Origin: a phage
Direction: 5' to 3' (one strand)
Sequence record: PZ445432.1
Length of the DNA: 64,000 nt
The number at the start of each line of letters is the position of its first letter. Positions within the stretch are counted from its first letter, which is position 1. A program made the translations under genes and the position numbers. Positions 8,660 to 61,470 of the stretch are shown here, in pieces. The notes below the pieces were generated by a model. That model did not search any database. It was not told where the DNA came from and worked only from the letters and a program-made list of their open reading frames with translations.

Positions 8660-9434
8660 TATTATTTTTCTCCAATAGTTCTTTAATCGACAGGATTTCT
8701 ATCCCATTCGTTTCGGCTTTCTTATAAGATGAGGAAGAACGCTTCGATTCATCCTCACAGATTAGGTATTTGACGTCTTTGGTAACGGATTTCTTAACCG
8801 TATATCCTAGACCTTCTAAATAGTTTGTTGCATCCGTTCTATTTGCAAAATCTTGCAAAGATCCGGTAATACATACCGCGATTCCATTTGGCTGGGCAGC
8901 TAATTCATCCGTAGTGATAATATTAGCTTTAGTGCCCTTAATACCAGTTGAGAATTTCCACGGTAGTTCGATAACATCCTTGCCTTGTGGGGAATTTAGC
9001 CAGGCTTTGTAATTTTCTCCAGCCTTGCCGTCAGCCTTCACATCATGGAAGCTAGTGCAATTTTGGGATAATTTCTTTGCTGCAACCTCTCCAATTAGAG
9101 GGATTCCTAAAGAACCGAGAACTGAACCAAAGTCAATGTCTCCGCGAACTTTAGTATTTAATTCGCTAGTTAACTTAGCGGCAACCTTGCTACCCACGGC
9201 TCTAACCAAATCTTCTTCGGTTAGGTAAAATAGTTCTGAAATCTTCGTCAGCTCCAGCTTCTCAATAGTTTTTGGGCCAAAGCCCTTTAACTTCATTTTT
9301 GAACAGAAGTTCTCAATTAACTTGCTTGATTGCGCTGGACAGTTGGACTTATTACGACAGAATAATTGTCCGTTGACAAGATCTAGCTTAGAACCACAAG
9401 AGGGACATTGTGTTGGAATTTCGATTTTCATCAA
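8652..9434 (-). CDS. ligB: NAD-dependent DNA ligase, C-terminal subunit (Zn finger, HhH, BRCT)
   Basis: CPSCGS ... C ... CPAQ zinc-finger pattern typical of LigA, HhH-like region, BRCT-like AVCITGSL. Confidence 0.8.
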   Translation of the reverse strand: MMKIEIPTQCPSCGSKLDLVNGQLFCRNKSNCPAQSSKLIENFCSKMKLKGFGPKTIEKLELTKISELFYLTEEDLVRAVGSKVAAKLTSELNTKVRGDIDFGSVLGSLGIPLIGEVAAKKLSQNCTSFHDVKADGKAGENYKAWLNSPQGKDVIELPWKFSTGIKGTKANIITTDELAAQPNGIAVCITGSLQDFANRTDATNYLEGLGYTVKKSVTKDVKYLICEDESKRSSSSYKKAETNGIEILSIKELLEKNNNV

Positions 9435-9461
9435 ATTTCTTCCTTATCAATTTATATAAAT

Positions 9462-9490
9462 ATTATAGCAAGTATTTAAGCATTTAGCAA
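9462..9490 (-). promoter_or_regulatory. sigma70-like promoter between the two ligase ORFs
   Basis: Reverse complement gives TTGCTA, 17 nt, TATAAT, followed by the leader cassette. Confidence 0.5.
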
Positions 9491-9633
9491 CTACAATTTT
9501 AATTAACTTTGCTTACCCTCGCCATAACTTTCTATCCCTCAACTGAATGATAATAGTATATACCTAAGCGGCGAAAATGTCAATAACCACTTTATAATTC
9601 CGATATGGTAGATGGGTAGCAAAGGGTTATGTA

Positions 9634-10605
9634 TTAATCGTATACTCGCTCTACTATGCACGGGATTACACCACCAGCACGAATCACTCGAATCTGGCAA
9701 CCGATCTCTAGATCGAGAGAGTTAATATAATCAACGTTATTAAGAGTTGCTTTAACAATTGTAGCATCATCAATAATTACCGGTTCAAAATAACCAACTG
9801 GAGTTACTTTACCCGAAGCCCCCACCTGCCATTCAACTTTAGTAAGAGTTGTAATCTCGCCTTCTTCATCCTCTTTAATAGCGAATGCTCCACGAGGGAA
9901 TTTATTAGTCCAGCCTTCACGGAAGAATTTGTTGTTATCATTAATACGAACAACTTTACCGTCCGTCGGAATCCATTTAAAGAAGGAACGCACATTAACA
10001 ACTGTTAAGAAGTTCTCATTCTCCAGCCAAAGCATATCTTTTAAGTATGATTCTGTAATACCTACAGATTCAGCAGAACACTGGATACCATATGCAACGA
10101 AGATTAAACCACCTTCCCCAATGCGTTGTACGAAATCATCACTATCTTTGAGGTTAATAGCACCAGAGGCAAAGTTACGTTTATTTTCTACTTCTTTTGT
10201 AATTAGAACTTCACCAGTTATTTGAGTAGGTACTTTTTGGGAAATCTTTTTAGGAATATTCAGCAATCTTACGTTGCTTGTGACATCATTCCCTAGAATA
10301 CCGTTACCACGAGTTAGTGCTTGAACAAATTCGCCGTTAATATACAGCAGAGAAATTGCACAACCATCTAACTTATCGGTTTCCACCTGACCTAAAGGAT
10401 TGAATGGTGGTTTATCACCACGGTTATAGTAAACTTTCTGTAAAGAATACATACGATATAGATGTGGAATATCACCCTTAGGCCCGATCTCTTCCTCTAA
10501 TGGGAAGCGTTTTACCAGACGATCATATTCTTCATCAGAGATTAAAGACATTCCCTGGTAATATGCTTCTTGGCAACGTTTAATAAAGTCTTTTACATTA
10601 GTCAT
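9634..10605 (-). CDS. ligA: NAD-dependent DNA ligase, N-terminal adenylation/OB subunit
   Basis: KLDG adenylation motif (KLDGCAISLLY) and an OB-fold-like C-terminus (IRVIRAGGVIP). Confidence 0.8.
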   Translation of the reverse strand: MTNVKDFIKRCQEAYYQGMSLISDEEYDRLVKRFPLEEEIGPKGDIPHLYRMYSLQKVYYNRGDKPPFNPLGQVETDKLDGCAISLLYINGEFVQALTRGNGILGNDVTSNVRLLNIPKKISQKVPTQITGEVLITKEVENKRNFASGAINLKDSDDFVQRIGEGGLIFVAYGIQCSAESVGITESYLKDMLWLENENFLTVVNVRSFFKWIPTDGKVVRINDNNKFFREGWTNKFPRGAFAIKEDEEGEITTLTKVEWQVGASGKVTPVGYFEPVIIDDATIVKATLNNVDYINSLDLEIGCQIRVIRAGGVIPCIVERVYD

Positions 10606-10964: not shown

Positions 10965-11273
10965 CTAGGCATTCTTGGCTTTGAGTTCTTCAGCTCGTTT
11001 CTGTACTTCATGTAAAACCTCAGATTCGCTAAGAATCTGTGTAAACGCATAGAAAAGCTGTGATGTTGTTTCTAGGGTGTAAGGAAAAGAGAAGCCAGAT
11101 TTCGTTGGAAACCATTCATCATTAATATCAAGAAGCCAGTAACGAATACCCATGTATAGATTCCCACGAAATTCAGATACTGTTAATCTTACTTGTTCCC
11201 CCTCCCTCTCCCAAAGTATGATGGACTGGTCATCAACGTGTCCTTCATAGTTTTGATTTACCTGTTCGCTCAT
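10965..11273 (-). CDS. hypothetical protein
   Basis: 102-aa ORF; a terminator-like hairpin overlaps its 3' end. Confidence 0.45.
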   Translation of the reverse strand: MSEQVNQNYEGHVDDQSIILWEREGEQVRLTVSEFRGNLYMGIRYWLLDINDEWFPTKSGFSFPYTLETTSQLFYAFTQILSESEVLHEVQKRAEELKAKNA

Positions 11274-28276: not shown

Positions 28277-29115
28277 TGCAACAATACTTAAAAATTTTGA
28301 CAGATGTAATTTTACTAGGTGAACCCCGTAATGACCGTACAGGAACAGGCACAGTTTCAATTTTTGATTCCTATGCTAAGTTCGATCTACGTGAGGGATT
28401 CCCTGCCGTAACCACTAAACGTCTAGCCTGGAAATCAGTAGTAGGAGAACTTTTATGGTTCTTGTCTGGTTCCACAAATCTTCATGATCTACGTGTATTC
28501 ACATTTGGGCGTGACGAAGGACAGTGGACCATCTGGACTCCAAATTATGAAGACCAAGCTATAAGTATGGGGTATGATAAGGGTAATCTAGGACCGGTAT
28601 ATGGTAAACAGTGGCGTAACTTTGGTGGGCGAGATCAGATTCTAGAACTTATTGAAGGACTCAAGAATAATCCTCATGGCCGCAGACATCTAGTTTCTGC
28701 ATGGAACGTAGCTGAACTTGATAAAATGGCATTACCGCCCTGCCACTACGGCTTCCAGTGCTATGTAAGTAACGATGGATACCTAGATCTTAAATGGACA
28801 CAACGTTCTGTAGATTGTTTCCTCGGTTTACCCTTCAATATTGCTAGTTATGCTTTATTAACGCATATATTAGCAAAACTGACAGGATTAAAACCTCGTT
28901 ATCTCATCTTTAGTGGTGGAGATACTCATATCTATAATGACCACATGGAACAGGTAGAAGAACAGGTAAAACGCAAGCCACGCCCTCTACCAACTCTAGT
29001 AATGCCAGAGTTTGTAGATCTTTACGATTTATTAGAAAATAATACGGCAGCTTGGTCCTTCCAGCTTGAAGGATATGATCCGCATCCGGCTCTTAAAGCT
29101 AAAATGTCTTCCTAA
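28276..29115 (+). CDS. thyA: thymidylate synthase
   Basis: Active-site PPCHYGFQCYV and a DRTGTGT-type N-terminal motif. Confidence 0.9.
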   Translation: MQQYLKILTDVILLGEPRNDRTGTGTVSIFDSYAKFDLREGFPAVTTKRLAWKSVVGELLWFLSGSTNLHDLRVFTFGRDEGQWTIWTPNYEDQAISMGYDKGNLGPVYGKQWRNFGGRDQILELIEGLKNNPHGRRHLVSAWNVAELDKMALPPCHYGFQCYVSNDGYLDLKWTQRSVDCFLGLPFNIASYALLTHILAKLTGLKPRYLIFSGGDTHIYNDHMEQVEEQVKRKPRPLPTLVMPEFVDLYDLLENNTAAWSFQLEGYDPHPALKAKMSS

Positions 29116-37639: not shown

Positions 37640-37680
37640 AAGCCCTGTGTTCCCTGGAGAGCGCAGGGCTTTTCTGTTTT
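37640..37680 (+). terminator. rho-independent terminator
   Basis: AGCCCTG ... CAGGGCT hairpin followed by TTTTCTGTTTT. Confidence 0.55.
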
Positions 37681-39120: not shown

Positions 39121-39193
39121 GGGGTGTAATCGAATTGGCATAGGTACTGTACTTAAAATTCAGGTTTTGTGGGTTCGAATCCCAGCGAGGCGT
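39121..39193 (+). tRNA. tRNA-like element (anticodon-like loop TAA; acceptor stem does not pair)
   Basis: Good T-arm (GTGGG-TTCGAAT-CCCAG) and anticodon-like hairpin CTGTA-CTTAAAA-TTCAG, but no 5'/3' acceptor pairing found; a -10 TATAAT lies upstream. Confidence 0.25.
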
Positions 39194-46995: not shown

Positions 46996-47747
46996 TGTCA
47001 GTATTAGTAGGTTTACATGGCGAGGCAGGTGCAGGAAAAGATACCGTTGCAAAATTAATTATCGATTGGTGTAATGACACGTATCCAACGTGTTTACCAC
47101 GTCGTTACAGTTTTGCTAAACCAGTTTATGAGCTTGCATCCGTAATCCTCGGGGTAACTCCAGAGTTTCTAGGAGAGCGCAGGGGAAAAGAAATTGACCA
47201 ATGGTTTACGGTCACACAATCTCAATTGGAGCGAGCTAGAGACGTATGGTTTAAATATGGTATCGATAAGTTTGAAGACTTCTCGTACGTTTGGCCGATT
47301 TTTGAGGAAAAATATCTTAATCCTCAACAACTTATCTCAGAGAATAAAGAAGACGGACTTTATAGTTTATTTATTTCTCCGAGAAAAATGTTACAGCTCG
47401 TAGGAACAGAGCTAGGAAGGCAGCTGGTACATGAACGCATTTGGCTCATAATTCTGGAGCAATCCATCGCTAAAGACGACCCAGATGTCGCCGTAATAAC
47501 AGATGTGAGATTCCCCAATGAAGGAGAGTTACTCAGAGAAACGAACCATTTAGATATGGATTCTTTACTAATAAATGTAGTGCCCGCTGAGCAGAAGTTC
47601 ACTATTAAATCAGATCATCCATCTGAAAGTGGTATTCCTACAAAATATATCACTCACGAATTAGTTAATAAATTCGATGGTATCAATAACCTTAAACTAG
47701 AAGTGTATAACTTCTGTGACTTAGAGCTAGAACCACTAGTTGGATAA
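46995..47747 (+). CDS. dnk: deoxynucleoside monophosphate kinase
   Basis: N-terminal P-loop GLHGEAGAGKDT in a 250-aa ORF; family assignment is an inference. Confidence 0.6.
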   Translation: MSVLVGLHGEAGAGKDTVAKLIIDWCNDTYPTCLPRRYSFAKPVYELASVILGVTPEFLGERRGKEIDQWFTVTQSQLERARDVWFKYGIDKFEDFSYVWPIFEEKYLNPQQLISENKEDGLYSLFISPRKMLQLVGTELGRQLVHERIWLIILEQSIAKDDPDVAVITDVRFPNEGELLRETNHLDMDSLLINVVPAEQKFTIKSDHPSESGIPTKYITHELVNKFDGINNLKLEVYNFCDLELEPLVG

Positions 47748-57933: not shown

Positions 57934-58119
57934 ATGGAAACTCTTTTTCTTTTAATGCTTGTAGGTTCCCTGCTAGTCATATTAGCACTTCTACTAATCT
58001 GCAATATTCTTAATAATAAGAATTTAGAGTTAAAGTGTGAGAACCAAATCCTTAATCGTGAACTTAAACAATATAATCTAGCAGCTCATAAACTGCTAGA
58101 CAAACTGGAGAATAAATAA
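57934..58119 (+). CDS. hypothetical membrane protein
   Basis: 61-aa ORF with an N-terminal transmembrane helix. Confidence 0.4.
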   Translation: METLFLLMLVGSLLVILALLLICNILNNKNLELKCENQILNRELKQYNLAAHKLLDKLENK

Positions 58120-58727
58120 TGTTTACACAACAACCTATTCAAGTAGTACCAGATCATGAACTGAATACATGGGATTATAGCTTTAAAGATTTAACTGCTA
58201 CTGTACAATTCAAATCTATGAAGCTAACCTTTGCACACACTAATATTAAAGCATGTAAAGATTTTGAAGGTAGGCTCAACAACGCTCGTAAGATTTTTGG
58301 TACGGCTCGGATTCCAGCTGATAACCTTATTAACGCATTAATAGATGCGGGCTATAAACTCGTGAAGGCTGAGGTGAACCGCCCTAGTACTCCAGTAACT
58401 GTTAGTGATCCGTGGCAGTCAGGGCCAATTATAAGGTGGAACAGTCCTAAAATAACGTCGGATTTGCACAATGTTCCATGCGGTGGTGCGCTGTCGTCTA
58501 ATCAGTCCTATCGAGTTGGGGAAGATTATGGGCCTTCTGCACAGTTGAAACATACTCAAGAAGCTTTTGAATCTGACATGAAAAGCGTAGCACCTGCAGA
58601 TGCTGGAGTTTCTAGGAGTTCTGTTTGTACTATTCATTTTAATAATCCTAGTAAACATGGAAGTCTAGAAGATGCTATTATGGGGGCGTTGGGAGCTGCT
58701 CTTAATGAAGATAAGAGAGGTAATTAA
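58119..58727 (+). CDS. hypothetical protein
   Basis: 202-aa ORF. Confidence 0.45.
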   Translation: MFTQQPIQVVPDHELNTWDYSFKDLTATVQFKSMKLTFAHTNIKACKDFEGRLNNARKIFGTARIPADNLINALIDAGYKLVKAEVNRPSTPVTVSDPWQSGPIIRWNSPKITSDLHNVPCGGALSSNQSYRVGEDYGPSAQLKHTQEAFESDMKSVAPADAGVSRSSVCTIHFNNPSKHGSLEDAIMGALGAALNEDKRGN

Positions 58728-59452
58728 TGAGTATTAAAAAGAATTTAGCAGAGATTATTAAATTAGCTAGAGCTTGTAATGGAAAATGTGTTTCTCAACT
58801 TAATGAACTAGAGGCACATGCAGTAGCGTTTTGTGCAGAGTTTTATCCTGCATATATTAACGCTAGTGGACAGCCGAAATATAATAAAGATGCAGAAGAA
58901 GTTACGTTAGCTCCTTCGTATATTAGTATACGTCGTCTGATTCAAACTGTTGACCCTAATATTAAAGGATTTTCAGCAGATTCATTCCATGTTTTTGCGG
59001 ATAAAGAACTCCCACATTTTAAAGAAGGAAGTGCAAAGACAGCCCTAGAATGTTATCCTAATATTTTGATGATTCCACCTAAGCAATGTAAGTATGATCA
59101 TCTTCCTAGACTTACAAAGAAAGTAGAACCACCTTATTCTTCTCTATCTGAATTAAAGCTAGGAATTGTATCTACACTTGCGCAGGTTCATCTAAGTATA
59201 GTTGACGACTCAACAACATCTAATCCAGTCTTAGATGCTGCACATTATGAAATTTTACGTGACCCTGAACAGGCTAGAAAAGTTGCGAAGTCTGTTAAGT
59301 TTGACATCTCAACAATTCTTGATACGATGCAAGATACGAGACCTAGAGGAAGTGTAGATTATTCTGCGCTAAATTCCGAGTCATCTTACCTAGCAACATT
59401 CCTTTTCATGGCATCGAAGGGAATCATACTCAAAGTCAATCACGATGTATAA
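58727..59452 (+). CDS. hypothetical protein
   Basis: 241-aa ORF; last plus-strand gene before the repeat-rich region. Confidence 0.45.
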   Translation: MSIKKNLAEIIKLARACNGKCVSQLNELEAHAVAFCAEFYPAYINASGQPKYNKDAEEVTLAPSYISIRRLIQTVDPNIKGFSADSFHVFADKELPHFKEGSAKTALECYPNILMIPPKQCKYDHLPRLTKKVEPPYSSLSELKLGIVSTLAQVHLSIVDDSTTSNPVLDAAHYEILRDPEQARKVAKSVKFDISTILDTMQDTRPRGSVDYSALNSESSYLATFLFMASKGIILKVNHDV

Positions 59453-59468
59453 ACGTTAACAAAATCTT

Positions 59469-59497
59469 CTTGACATTATTTGAGCTGTATGTTATAA
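59469..59497 (+). promoter_or_regulatory. consensus sigma70 promoter (TTGACA-17-TATAAT) facing the ORF-free repeat region
   Basis: Exact TTGACA at 59469-59474 and TATAAT at 59492-59497 with a 17-nt spacer. Confidence 0.6.
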
Positions 59498-59852
59498 TAA
59501 TCTCATAGATTAAAAACATCAACTTGTTTTTACCTCTAGGCCGTAGATTTACATCATTCCTCGTAGGAAAACACTTGATGACGGTTCTGTTCGCAGGTTC
59601 TCGTCAATTGTTCTTCCTCCCCGAGACTCAGGAGGATGTATCAAATCGCACGCGCCTAGAGGGGCTAACTCTCATGAAATGGGGGTATATTAACTTTTAA
59701 ATAACTGATAAATATTTAAAGGCAATATCTGTGTTCAAGATGATACACCTGTTGCCGCTCATCTGCTAGGATGGCACAACACTTTCTTCTAGACTCCTAA
59801 GTTTCTAGGAAATTGATAAGCACAAATTCTAGAGATCGCACAAAAATATTCA

Positions 59853-60631
59853 TCGGATTTGCACATATTCTAGGAAATTGATAAGTACAAAAATATTCAT
59901 CGGATTTGCACATATTCTAGGGCAGTTTCTCTCAAACGTTACACATACTAGGCGGTTAATATAGGGCGGTTATAGGGAGGGCGGTTATTTCTAGGAGACA
60001 TTTTTTGAAAACACATTTCTGGATTTTACTGTCGGATTTGCACACTGCATTTCTAGAAATTTATGGTCGGATTTGCACAAACGCCTAAGTTTTTAGGAAC
60101 ATATAATCTCTTGAAAATGGCAGCATTATTTCGGGCCGAAGGCCCATGATTGCCTGAGTTTTTAGAGCCACAGGAATTTTCACTTGTCAAGCTATTTTGC
60201 CCCATTTTGCTAATAAAATTTTACTTTTTCTGCACCTATCTCAAATTTCCCCAAATTATCTCAACTCTTCCCCAAAACCCCGCAAATCAGGTGCTCCGCA
60301 CCAATCCTGCGCCCACACCATTCTAGCCTCCCAAATTTCTCTCGCTCTCTCATCTTCTCCTCAAACCTATACAATCACACACCCTCTCATCGAAGTCACA
60401 AAAATTTCATCGGATTCGCACAAATAAACCCATGTCGGATTTGCACATATTCTAGCTAATTCCACAGGATTGATGCGCAGCATCGGATTGCTGGAGTTTT
60501 TGGGAAAATTCGTCGTCGGATTCGCACATCACAAAAGTTTTTAGGGTCGGATTTGCACACTACCAAAAATTGTCGGATTCGCACATACACGCCCGCACGT
60601 AACACCCGTGGAGCAATGTCGGATTTGCACA
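59853..60631. repeat. dispersed array of about 10 copies of TCGGATT(T/C)GCACA
   Basis: Copies start near 59853, 59900, 60032, 60067, 60410, 60435, 60516, 60547, 60573 and 60619, all in the same orientation, often followed by ATATTCTAG. Confidence 0.7.
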
Positions 60632-60636
60632 AAAGC

Positions 60637-60654
60637 GCAGGGCAATTGCCCTGC
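60637..60654. repeat. 18-bp perfect palindrome GCAGGGCAATTGCCCTGC
   Basis: Read directly; could act as an operator or form a hairpin. Confidence 0.6.
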
Positions 60655-60661
60655 GACTTTG

Positions 60662-60680
60662 AATGAGAATCATTATCATT
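60662..60680. repeat. 19-bp near-palindrome AATGAGAATCATTATCATT (left boundary element)
   Basis: Near-identical palindrome recurs at 61216-61234, so the pair brackets the iteron/DnaA/LexA block. Confidence 0.55.
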
Positions 60681-60891
60681 TAAGAAGTGGAATGCAAATG
60701 ATAATTATTCTCATTTAAGAAGTGGAATGATTCTCATTTAATAAGTGGAATGCAAATGATAATTATTCTCATTTAAGAAGTGGAATGAGAACTATTCAAG
60801 AAGTGAAACGATTCTCATTAAAGAAGCGAAACGATTCTCATCCTAGAAAGGGAATGCAAATGATAATGATTCTCATTTAAAAACGGAAGTG
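60676..60891. repeat. iteron-like direct repeats (about 8 copies of a 21-bp unit TCTCATTTAAGAAGTGGAATG)
   Basis: Copies start near 60676, 60709, 60732, 60767, 60792, 60813, 60836 and 60871; some are separated by CAAATGATAATTAT spacers. Confidence 0.7.
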
Positions 60892-60910
60892 AGAAACACT
60901 GTTATTTAAG

Positions 60911-60992
60911 TTATCCACAGACTTATTAACAGCACGATTTGACTTGACAGAATCCTAGCCATTTTGAGGCGTTATCCACAGACTTATCCACA
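60911..60992. promoter_or_regulatory. three consensus DnaA boxes (TTATCCACA)
   Basis: Exact TTATCCACA at 60911-60919, 60972-60980 and 60984-60992, all in the same orientation. Confidence 0.65.
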
Positions 60993-61000
60993 GCTTATTC

Positions 61001-61020
61001 TACTGTATAAATATACAGTA
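61001..61020. promoter_or_regulatory. LexA/SOS-box-like palindrome TACTGTATAAATATACAGTA
   Basis: Matches CTGT-N8-ACAG with flanking TA; 20-bp palindrome immediately after the DnaA boxes. Confidence 0.55.
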
Positions 61021-61215
61021 TTCCTACGCAGTGAATAATTCTAATATAGGCCTAAAACGTCCTGAATCGCATTCTAGCGCGTTTTATTTTGGCGGGGATA
61101 CTAAAACAAGGGCAAAACTGGAGGAGGCTTAGAAATTAGTTAGCTCGCTAACGATCACACAAGGCGACACGTAACACCCTAATCATTAGCAGGCTAACCA
61201 TCGCGGGCGCGGTCA

Positions 61216-61234
61216 AATGAGAATCATTCTCATT
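61216..61234. repeat. 19-bp perfect palindrome AATGAGAATCATTCTCATT (right boundary element)
   Basis: Partner of the 60662-60680 element. Confidence 0.55.
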
Positions 61235-61275
61235 TGAGGATTGGGGGCACTTCCTGATAATTGCCCCCGTGATTA

Positions 61276-61470
61276 TTAGTCCGGTAATTGATGCGTGATC
61301 TTCTCCTCTTCCCCGTAGGAATCGACTAAATGCTGATAATAACCATCATGATCATAAATGACTTTATCATATTCGCCCAGCTCGACCGCTTGCCGGTTTT
61401 CCGGAGTATCGGGCACATAAAAAACGTCAACCATTGTGGTAGTTTTGGTCACAATAATTTTATCGCTCAT
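61276..61470 (-). CDS. hypothetical protein
   Basis: 64-aa acidic ORF; first of a minus-strand block with a shared upstream motif. Confidence 0.4.
   Translation of the reverse strand: MSDKIIVTKTTTMVDVFYVPDTPENRQAVELGEYDKVIYDHDGYYQHLVDSYGEEEKITHQLPD

Follow-up and report, generated by a model that had tools for sequence, protein, structure and literature searches.

The subject of this report is an 1,818-bp region, positions 59453 to 61270, of a phage DNA of 64,000 nucleotides (record PZ445432.1; this whole stretch is called the window, and positions are those of the window unless otherwise stated). As established by sequence comparison, the terminal repeat of a T5-type phage genome meets the unique DNA in this region, whose part from 60165 to 61270 is homologous to the injection stop signal (iss) of phage T5. 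The explanation that in our view accounts best for the region as a whole, with a probability of roughly 0.85, is that this junction with its iss homologue carries a putative landing pad for host proteins and, beside it, an array of direct repeats that would be read by a protein of the phage. The element is of an already known kind, annotated in T5 GenBank records of the mid-2000s; it is real and conserved, but not new. The original prediction, which was made from the letters alone, had named a theta-type replication origin, a host-protein titration or decoy element and an injection-stop or terminal-repeat boundary as candidate readings, and it is the last one that holds, given the T5 homology and the repeat end mapped to 60165.

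The region is identical (100% over the 1,818-bp query) to that of Escherichia phage HildyBeyeler (Bas33, MZ501074; Demerecviridae, Tequintavirus), called Hildy below. The BLASTN comparison within the T5 family that had been proposed found 448 matching records of T5-like phages, 88 of which cover at least 80% of the query, with a core that is highly conserved. The region fills the intergenic gap between bas33_0167, the last early gene, which lies on the + strand and ends at 59452, and a block of small - strand genes from 61276; past this block, deeper in the repeat, lie A2, A1 and dmp (dNMP monophosphatase), the pre-early genes of T5. The strand switch and the slightly GC-richer block behind it had been noticed correctly, the GC content being about 0.41 after 61 kb vs about 0.37. 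The corresponding region of T5 was reportedly first sequenced and described by Heusterspreute et al. in 1987. For T5, the annotation of AY543070 places here an "injection stop signal (iss)", the left terminal repeat and a major single-chain interruption, and that of AY587007 gives palindromes C-J, direct repeats A-D, inverted repeats C'/D' and a "major single-stranded nick 1, 7.9%". The identity to T5 is 85-90% over about 1.3 kb, and the alignment with AY587007 is nearly continuous along T5 9290-10530. A preprint by Davison (10.1101/866236) names the region "Repeat Region 3", remarks on its extreme conservation and proposes that membrane-bound DnaA grips the DnaA boxes, and according to papers of 2026, including one on Bas33 itself, the way in which the stop works is still poorly understood.

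By pairwise alignment and coordinate transfer, the elements of the region correspond one to one to the T5 features. The LexA-like box is T5 palindrome D (palD); the DnaA-box pairs are the direct repeats B (DRB1/2), lying within the inverted repeats IRD' and IRC'; the iterons are the direct repeats C and neighbouring palindromes (DRC1-4 / palE-I); TCGGATTYGCACA (TCGGATT...) is direct repeat D (DRD1-9); and the palindrome that had been described as 18 bp long is palJ, with the nick motif CCCTGCGC overlapping it. All the motifs that had been listed from the letters alone are there, in numbers far beyond what chance would give. The features of the region are as follows, those without a strand being given by position.

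59470-59498, + strand: consensus sigma-70 promoter TTGACA-17-TGnTATAAT, 12/12 with TG extension, about 670 bp outside the repeat and aimed at it
59505-59700, + strand: structured cassette with a 5' hairpin at 59511-59532, a long hairpin, and a small hairpin with U-rich tail at about 59667-59700
59533-59662, + strand: 130-nt imperfect long hairpin CCTCTAGGCC...GCCTAGAGG of that cassette, RNA fold z = -6.2
59853-60079, + strand: four DRD copies, TCGGATTTGCACA, at 59853, 59900, 60032 and 60067, outside the repeat; T5 DRD7-9 and one extra Hildy copy
60153-60165: inner end of the long direct terminal repeat, which begins at 60165 and extends rightward
60181-60400, + strand: tract rich in C and poor in G, directly inside the repeat; richer in pyrimidines than any other 200 nt of the 64-kb window
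60410-60631, + strand: six DRD copies at 60410, 60435, 60516, 60547, 60573 and 60619, inside the repeat; T5 DRD6-1
60633-60655: nick motif AAGCGCAGGG overlapping the 20-bp perfect palindrome CGCAGGGCAATTGCCCTGCG; T5 "major nick 1, 7.9%" and palJ, T5 9650-9668
60660-60895: iteron-like block of about 8 units of 23 bp or a 35-bp long form; T5 DRC1-4, palE-I
60888-61020: IRC'-spacer-IRD' module, with a DnaA pair at 60911/60923, a pair at 60972/60984, then palD
61168-61270: distal elements, namely the second copy of CACGTAACAC, GGGCGCGGTC, a Fur-like palindrome and a GC hairpin
61215-61235: perfect 21-bp Fur-like palindrome AAATGAGAATCATTCTCATTT, directly after GGGCGCGGTC
61244-61269: GC hairpin GGGGGCA...TGCCCCC, at the 3' end of the last pre-early gene

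The region shares with the T5 iss its place, behind the last pre-early gene where the long terminal repeat has its inner end, and the order of its elements (palD, IRD'-spacer-IRC' with the DnaA pairs, DRC/palE-I, palJ with the 7.9% nick, six DRD, repeat end, more DRD). The differences from T5 are minor: Hildy has 10 DRD copies instead of 9, three exact TTATCCACA boxes in the module instead of one, and two more iteron units; its palD centre is flipped, and a different hairpin cassette follows the shared promoter. Among T5-like phages the order of the modules is identical in about 25 loci.

Regarding the end of the repeat, seven contigs of IMG/VR that contain both repeats place it at query positions 712-715 (six at 712-713 and one at 715), which is 60164-60167 of the window, and the T5 long-terminal-repeat end (10139) transfers to 60164/60165; the annotation of phage Spc35 puts it at about 60119. 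The end falls inside one of three copies of the 13-nt element CCTRAGTTTYTAG (59796, 60084 and 60153), and the sequence across it, TTTTTAG followed by AGCCACAGGAATTTT, is kept in Klebsiella phage phiKp_27. Since the repeat begins at 60165, the iss proper comprises 60165-61270, whereas 59453-60164, being unique DNA, is left for the second step of transfer, in which it enters first. The terminal repeat is direct and about 10 kb long. That the region straddles the repeat end had been overlooked by the original prediction, as had the nick site under the palindrome, the Fur-like character of the "iterons" and the structured nature of the cassette driven by the promoter.

The repeat end is bracketed by the DRD. 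As had been estimated, there are ten copies of TCGGATTYGCACA, written earlier as TCGGATT(T/C)GCACA; the count is exact, all copies are on the + strand between 59853 and 60631, and about 0.09 would be expected in 64 kb. The orientation is single in every one of about 45 loci, and arrays on both sides of the repeat end are found in E. coli and Klebsiella phages, phiKp_27 having four copies on each side. An eleventh exact copy (TCGGATTTGCACA, read S-D-L-H) lies at 58458-58470 on the + strand, within the early-gene open reading frame (ORF) 58119-58727 and about 1.4 kb outside the array; a copy at the equivalent distance is found in T5 and in at least 10 other T5-like loci. The 111.6-kb genome holds no exact DRD beyond the ten junction copies and this one, which has the same orientation as they have. 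In Vibrio phages the motif is altered to TAGAATCCGCACTCACA or TAGATTTCGCACT. Because the array diverges in this way between phage genera, the DRD is more likely to be read by a phage-encoded protein than by a protein of the host. The reader could be the small terminase subunit, which would make the repeat end during packaging; alternatively or in addition, it could be A2, which would restart transfer. Some smaller repeats were seen in and around the array: three GGCGGTTA repeats at 59951-59987 stand among the outer DRD copies, AGGGCGGTTAT is also duplicated at the equivalent place in phiKp_27, and the + strand of record MZ501074 has two near-DRD motifs, TCGGATTTGCACC and TAGGTTTTGCACA, at 28932 and 28947 (a distance of 15 bp), inside the region of the recombination-nuclease gene.

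The layout of the DRD suggests another reading, in which the region is mainly a packaging or end-formation site of the cos or pac kind: terminase would read the DRD arrays and cut at 60165, and the pause of injection would be a by-product or not be encoded here. In the cosQ-cosN-cosB site of lambda, the pac site of P1 with hexamers on both sides and the concatemer junction of T7 with its short repeats and nearby promoter, such elements flank the terminase cut. The lambda and P1 sites have the same layout as the junction studied here, where the repeat end is flanked by DRD arrays of one orientation (in E. coli and Klebsiella phages) and falls inside a thrice-repeated 13-nt element, the DRD being otherwise absent from the genome except for the copy at 58458; as at these packaging sites, arrays of a short motif stand on both sides of the end at 60165, and a strong promoter is aimed at the junction. 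Because the left end exits first, packaging would have to start at this repeat end. Unlike those sites, the DRD keeps one orientation over about 800 bp, and the region serves or coincides with an injection pause, which the other phages lack. Moreover, a packaging site leaves unexplained both the second, inverted DnaA/palD module deep in the repeat and the host-type consensus sites that are kept out to Vibrio phages, and both the length of the first-step transfer (7.9%) and the shear site have been mapped to within the region. We therefore take packaging as the main role to be possible but doubtful. As one role among others it is compatible with an injection stop at the same place.

The part of the region that the DRD do not account for is the palindrome-rich core at 60630-61270, of which the stretch with the DnaA pairs and palD is the best-conserved block and the sole part that BLAST still detects in Vibrio T5-like phages. 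The three exact DnaA boxes that had been reported are indeed present (TTATCCACA at 60911, 60972 and 60984, vs about 0.68 exact boxes expected in the whole window), and with a variant, TTATTAACA at 60923, they form two pairs with 3-bp gaps, separated by a spacer of about 51 bp (60927-60977). The LexA-box-like palindrome also stands: TACTGTATAAATATACAGTA at 61001-61020 differs from the consensus palindrome TACTGTATATATATACAGTA (CTGT-N8-ACAG with an AT-rich centre) in a single one of 20 positions, with 0 such matches expected. It is retained in most Tequintavirus and Epseptimavirus loci and in the Klebsiella and Vibrio phages, and its centre flips between AAAT and ATTT from phage to phage while the arms are kept. 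Our literature searches, which did not cover Davison's 2015 review, found no mention of LexA or Fur sites in the T5 iss.

A second, inverted copy of the module (IRC-spacer-IRD of Davison) was found just beyond the window end, in the gap between the divergent pre-early operons, at a position equivalent to 64472-64581 of the window (11020-11130 of locus L001, 101995-102104 of the record). Over the whole genome, 6 of the 8 TTATCCACA boxes and both strong LexA-like boxes lie within the module or this inverted twin, and in Vibrio phage VCPH, too, a LexA-like box with a DnaA box is found a second time in inverted orientation. With respect to the surroundings of palD, we observed a weak promoter-like site, TATACA-16-AATAAT, at 61012-61039 on the + strand (9/12), with its -35 element inside the LexA-like box and directed antisense into the pre-early operon; both Vibrio phages have a TAATAT/AATATT element at a similar distance past the box.

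The iteron-like block next to this module was said to contain about 8 direct repeats of 21 bp bracketed by two 19-bp palindromes. The number of units is right, whereas the period is 23 bp, or 35 bp in the long form; the palindromes do have related copies, yet these form a family of five (60664, 60699, 60757, 60861 and 61218) in which only the last is perfect (21 bp). The four members in the block are Fur-box-like palindromes TGA(G/T)AATNATT(C/A)TCA. All five are within 1-2 mismatches of the 15-bp 7-1-7 Fur motif TGATAATNATTATCA, with 0.82 expected in 64 kb, and by hand count the four match the 19-bp Fur consensus at 15 of 19 positions and the fifth (61213-61231) at 14 of 19; in their match to GATAATGATAATCATTATC / TGATAATNATTATCA, they resemble Fur boxes. 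With up to 2 mismatches to the 7-1-7 consensus allowed, the sites number 6, again vs 0.82 expected. What the present analysis adds is that, as sequences, the long-form iterons and the "19-bp palindromes" are Fur-box look-alikes. Perfect Fur 15-mers occur in some relatives (loci L010 and L057), and the iteron copy number differs between phages. A perfect 15-bp Fur-type palindrome, TGATAATGATTATCA, was also seen at 107581 of record MZ501074, inside dmp and near the outer (genome-left) repeat end. No promoter context for the Fur-like palindromes was found at the locus. In sequence, palD resembles the SOS boxes of E. coli (19/20 to TACTGTATATATATACAGTA) and the five palindromes resemble its Fur boxes (1-2 mismatches), but unlike E. 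coli LexA and Fur boxes they do not lie over a convincing promoter (the best is the 9/12 site at 61012-61039) and no regulated gene follows them. In the distal part, CACGTAACAC occurs twice with 0.06 expected, once among the inner DRD (60596-60605) and once near the distal Fur-like palindrome (61168-61177); it precedes that palindrome in both Vibrio phages too, and "GGGCGCGGTCAAATGAGA..TTCTCATTT" is likewise kept in both.

Repeats of about 23 bp beside tandem consensus DnaA boxes had led to the idea of a theta-type origin, with iterons and DnaA boxes as in plasmid origins; indeed, the iteron plasmid origins (P1 oriR, F, pSC101, R6K) and oriC and datA of E. coli share tandem DnaA boxes beside arrays of about 20-bp repeats, and the sign of the GC skew changes at about 59-60 kb. 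This change, however, coincides with the switch of gene orientation, and it is at about 22-23 kb of the window that the cumulative skew reaches its minimum. Scans of the six flanking proteins against Pfam and PHROG found no Rep or initiator protein, the matches being DUF7566 and PHROGs without function; BLAST found no match of the iteron/DnaA/LexA block in 72,556 plasmids and none of the whole region in 5,426 E. coli genomes, and a capture from a plasmid origin or from the host is therefore rejected. Unlike plasmid origins, the region is without a cognate Rep gene and is duplicated in inverted form inside the terminal repeat, and its "iterons" are palindromic and Fur-like rather than asymmetric Rep sites. 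According to the literature, the mapped origins of T5 lie close to the middle of its genome, and the genes for replication are silent during first-step transfer. With no Rep neighbour, no plasmid or E. coli homologue, a skew minimum elsewhere and the reported origins central, the plasmid-type origin was rejected, and we give hardly any credence to a theta-type origin here.

Between the DRD and the iterons, the 20-bp perfect palindrome CGCAGGGCAATTGCCCTGCG (60636-60655) carries on its edge the nick motif CCCTGCGC/AAGCGCAGGG, which is kept at 60633-60642; what is meant is the motif, the nick itself being invisible in sequence. It had been right that this palindrome is perfect, its length being 20 bp and not 18 bp. 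The motif RAGCGCAGGG occurs three times, always on the + strand (37659-37668, 47175-47184 and 60633-60642), with 0.08 expected, and its spacing from the left end of the genome agrees with the classical T5 major nicks at about 32.6, 18.5 and 7.9%. The nicking endonuclease of the phage (bas33_0003) probably recognises RAGCGCAGGG.

Comparison across genera separates the host-type sites from the DRD. The DnaA pairs, the LexA-type palindrome and the Fur-like palindrome beside GGGCGCGGTC are unchanged in the T5-like phages of Klebsiella (Sugarlandvirus) and Vibrio (X1, VCPH). Host-type sites that are frozen and a DRD that diverges with the phages are what is expected if host proteins read the former and a phage protein reads the DRD. 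The folding of the DNA also divides the region: as single-stranded DNA the core at 60630-61270 folds far better than shuffles (z = -8.2), whereas the part with the DRD and the repeat end folds worse than shuffles (z = +2.0), which points to two kinds of DNA, palindromic sites on one side and a linear direct-repeat array on the other.

The strong folding of the core is in keeping with the view that DNA structure and not proteins stops the entry, with hairpins or cruciforms, or a pairing between the module and its twin 3.4 kb away, jamming the channel of the tail or envelope until A1/A2 resolve or cut them. This is the classical view, with Davison's "knot and cut" as a variant, and the literature favours secondary structure and/or host components; besides the fold score, the perfect 20- and 21-bp palindromes and the 131-bp inverted DnaA/palD copy at 64472-64581 fit with it. 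But there is no obvious force that would make double-stranded DNA extrude cruciforms while in transit, and the palindromes are not arbitrary ones, as they fit the consensus sequences of specific proteins. In addition, the palD centre flips with its arms kept, as for the site of a dimer, the iteron copy number is variable, and the block is wholly replaced in VCPH. Jamming by structure is still a live reading, yet on this evidence we think it rather unlikely.

In the explanation that we prefer, with an iss homologue, a host-protein landing pad and a phage-read DRD, DNA delivery would pause here, about 8% of the genome having entered, until the pre-early proteins A1 and A2 are made. The palindrome-rich core at 60630-61270 would act as a dense landing pad for dimeric or oligomeric DNA-binding proteins, and the most plausible candidates, as judged by the motifs, are abundant proteins of the host: DnaA, for which there are two pairs of boxes, LexA, with an operator close to consensus, and Fur, with the five Fur-like palindromes. 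With this pad and the inverted copy 3.4 kb deeper in the repeat both loaded, the DNA would be held or knotted at the envelope of the cell; DnaA has been reported to be largely membrane-associated (Davison preprint, 10.1101/866236).

Several points weigh against this explanation. The LexA-like box is absent from two divergent relatives (loci L020 and L011), and VCPH has unrelated 15-bp GCAACAGTTG repeats in place of the Fur-like iteron block. Within Tequintavirus, the conservation of the host motifs is not specific to them, because the whole core is highly conserved. E. coli DH5a, a recA1 strain, is given as the host of a T5-like phage, so LexA cleavage cannot be required. The idea of an SOS-timed release of the stop was marked down in view of that host and of A2 mutants, which degrade host DNA yet fail in the second-step transfer. 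The sites resemble host-factor sites in their sequence, and cytoplasmic proteins bound to DNA that has already entered would not by themselves stop the further entry. In the literature, the exact position of the iss is described as undetermined by experiment in most phages. The sole anchor to the envelope is the membrane association of DnaA, a proposal of the Davison preprint (10.1101/866236).

The same cluster of near-consensus sites for three global host regulators, lying in the first-entering DNA and conserved across genera, could also be thought of as a sponge or decoy, as the original prediction had suggested, which would titrate DnaA, LexA and Fur against host replication initiation, SOS response and iron control. 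Clustered sites can titrate such proteins, as the datA locus and Fur-titration assays demonstrate. The numbers, however, are small: in each repeat the strong LexA-like boxes number just 2 and the DnaA boxes of exact consensus (TTATCCACA) 6, and a cell contains roughly a thousand or more molecules each of DnaA, LexA and Fur. Moreover, derepression of host regulons would be without obvious use, because T5 degrades the host DNA and shuts off host transcription within minutes. The titration idea is therefore weak, and we consider it improbable.

On the other side of the repeat end, the sigma70 promoter that had been predicted is a full consensus one (12/12 with a TG extension), its coordinates having been off by one only. 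In 11 phages its hexamers do not vary, whereas three unrelated versions of the 17-bp spacer occur, which is the signature of a real promoter, and the same promoter is also present in T5, Klebsiella phage phiKp_27 and Vibrio phage X1. These three have different sequences behind it and the same layout of promoter and long hairpin, and in phage S126 the long hairpin is kept despite a strongly diverged inner sequence. That the region has no credible ORF also proved correct, as the sole small ORF annotated behind the promoter (41-58 aa; Seafire gp020) was rejected, being frameshifted in Spc35 and absent in S126. In a sequence-based alignment of the divergent cassettes, 11 of 64 hairpin pairs have double changes, and only these are informative because the most divergent cassettes misalign. 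An Rfam 15 covariance scan of 59300-61400 at E <=1 gave no match in 59453-59800 and, in the iteron block, just two sub-threshold chance matches (folP and PrrF), and ARAGORN found no tRNA or tmRNA. Because both strands of the cassette fold about equally well, strand asymmetry does not distinguish an RNA hairpin from a DNA hairpin; the cassette, which is swappable, is probably a non-coding RNA, but it may instead act as a hairpin at the DNA level.

The 0.7 kb outside the repeat enters first in the second step, and the promoter there would drive a structured, probably non-coding transcript, whose readthrough would reach the tract at 60181-60400 inside the repeat. With a pyrimidine fraction of 0.675 (window mean 0.49, sd 0.05) and 14 G in 205 nt, the + strand of this tract looks like a Rho-utilisation (rut) site; the tract is nearly identical in T5, and its - strand is G-rich (GGGGTTTTGGGG and a third GGGG run, T5 DRA2/3) and quadruplex-prone. 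A joint reading may be drawn from the motifs, in which DnaA, LexA and Fur form a nucleoprotein plug on the first-injected DNA and so cause the pause, the LexA box is linked to the promoter-like site beside it, and the hairpin RNA is the first second-step transcript; that all of this holds together seems to us quite unlikely.

Outside the region, the window and record MZ501074 are not colinear: window 1-39184 corresponds to record 32483-71666 and window 39170-64000 to record 76693-101523, so that at 39170-39184 the record's 71,667-76,707, 5,041 bp of a tRNA-gene cluster, is absent. The junction lies within a 15-bp repeat in tRNA T-arm-like sequence, GGTTCGAATCCC.

The two-step delivery of T5 DNA has been a textbook oddity since the 1960s, and why it stops at 8% and how A1/A2 restart it is a long-standing question. 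Taken alone, the finding is a rediscovery of the stop-signal region; what makes it valuable is that the mechanism is unsolved and that host-type sites and phage-type repeats part in a way that can be tested, a contrast that turns the question of the stop mechanism into direct experiments on the pause and on the readers of the DRD. If the further parts of the joint reading were true, the antisense promoter-like site overlapping the LexA-like box would tie the shut-off of the pre-early genes to host DNA damage, and the promoter outside the repeat would yield an undescribed, conserved long-hairpin RNA as the first transcript of the second step.

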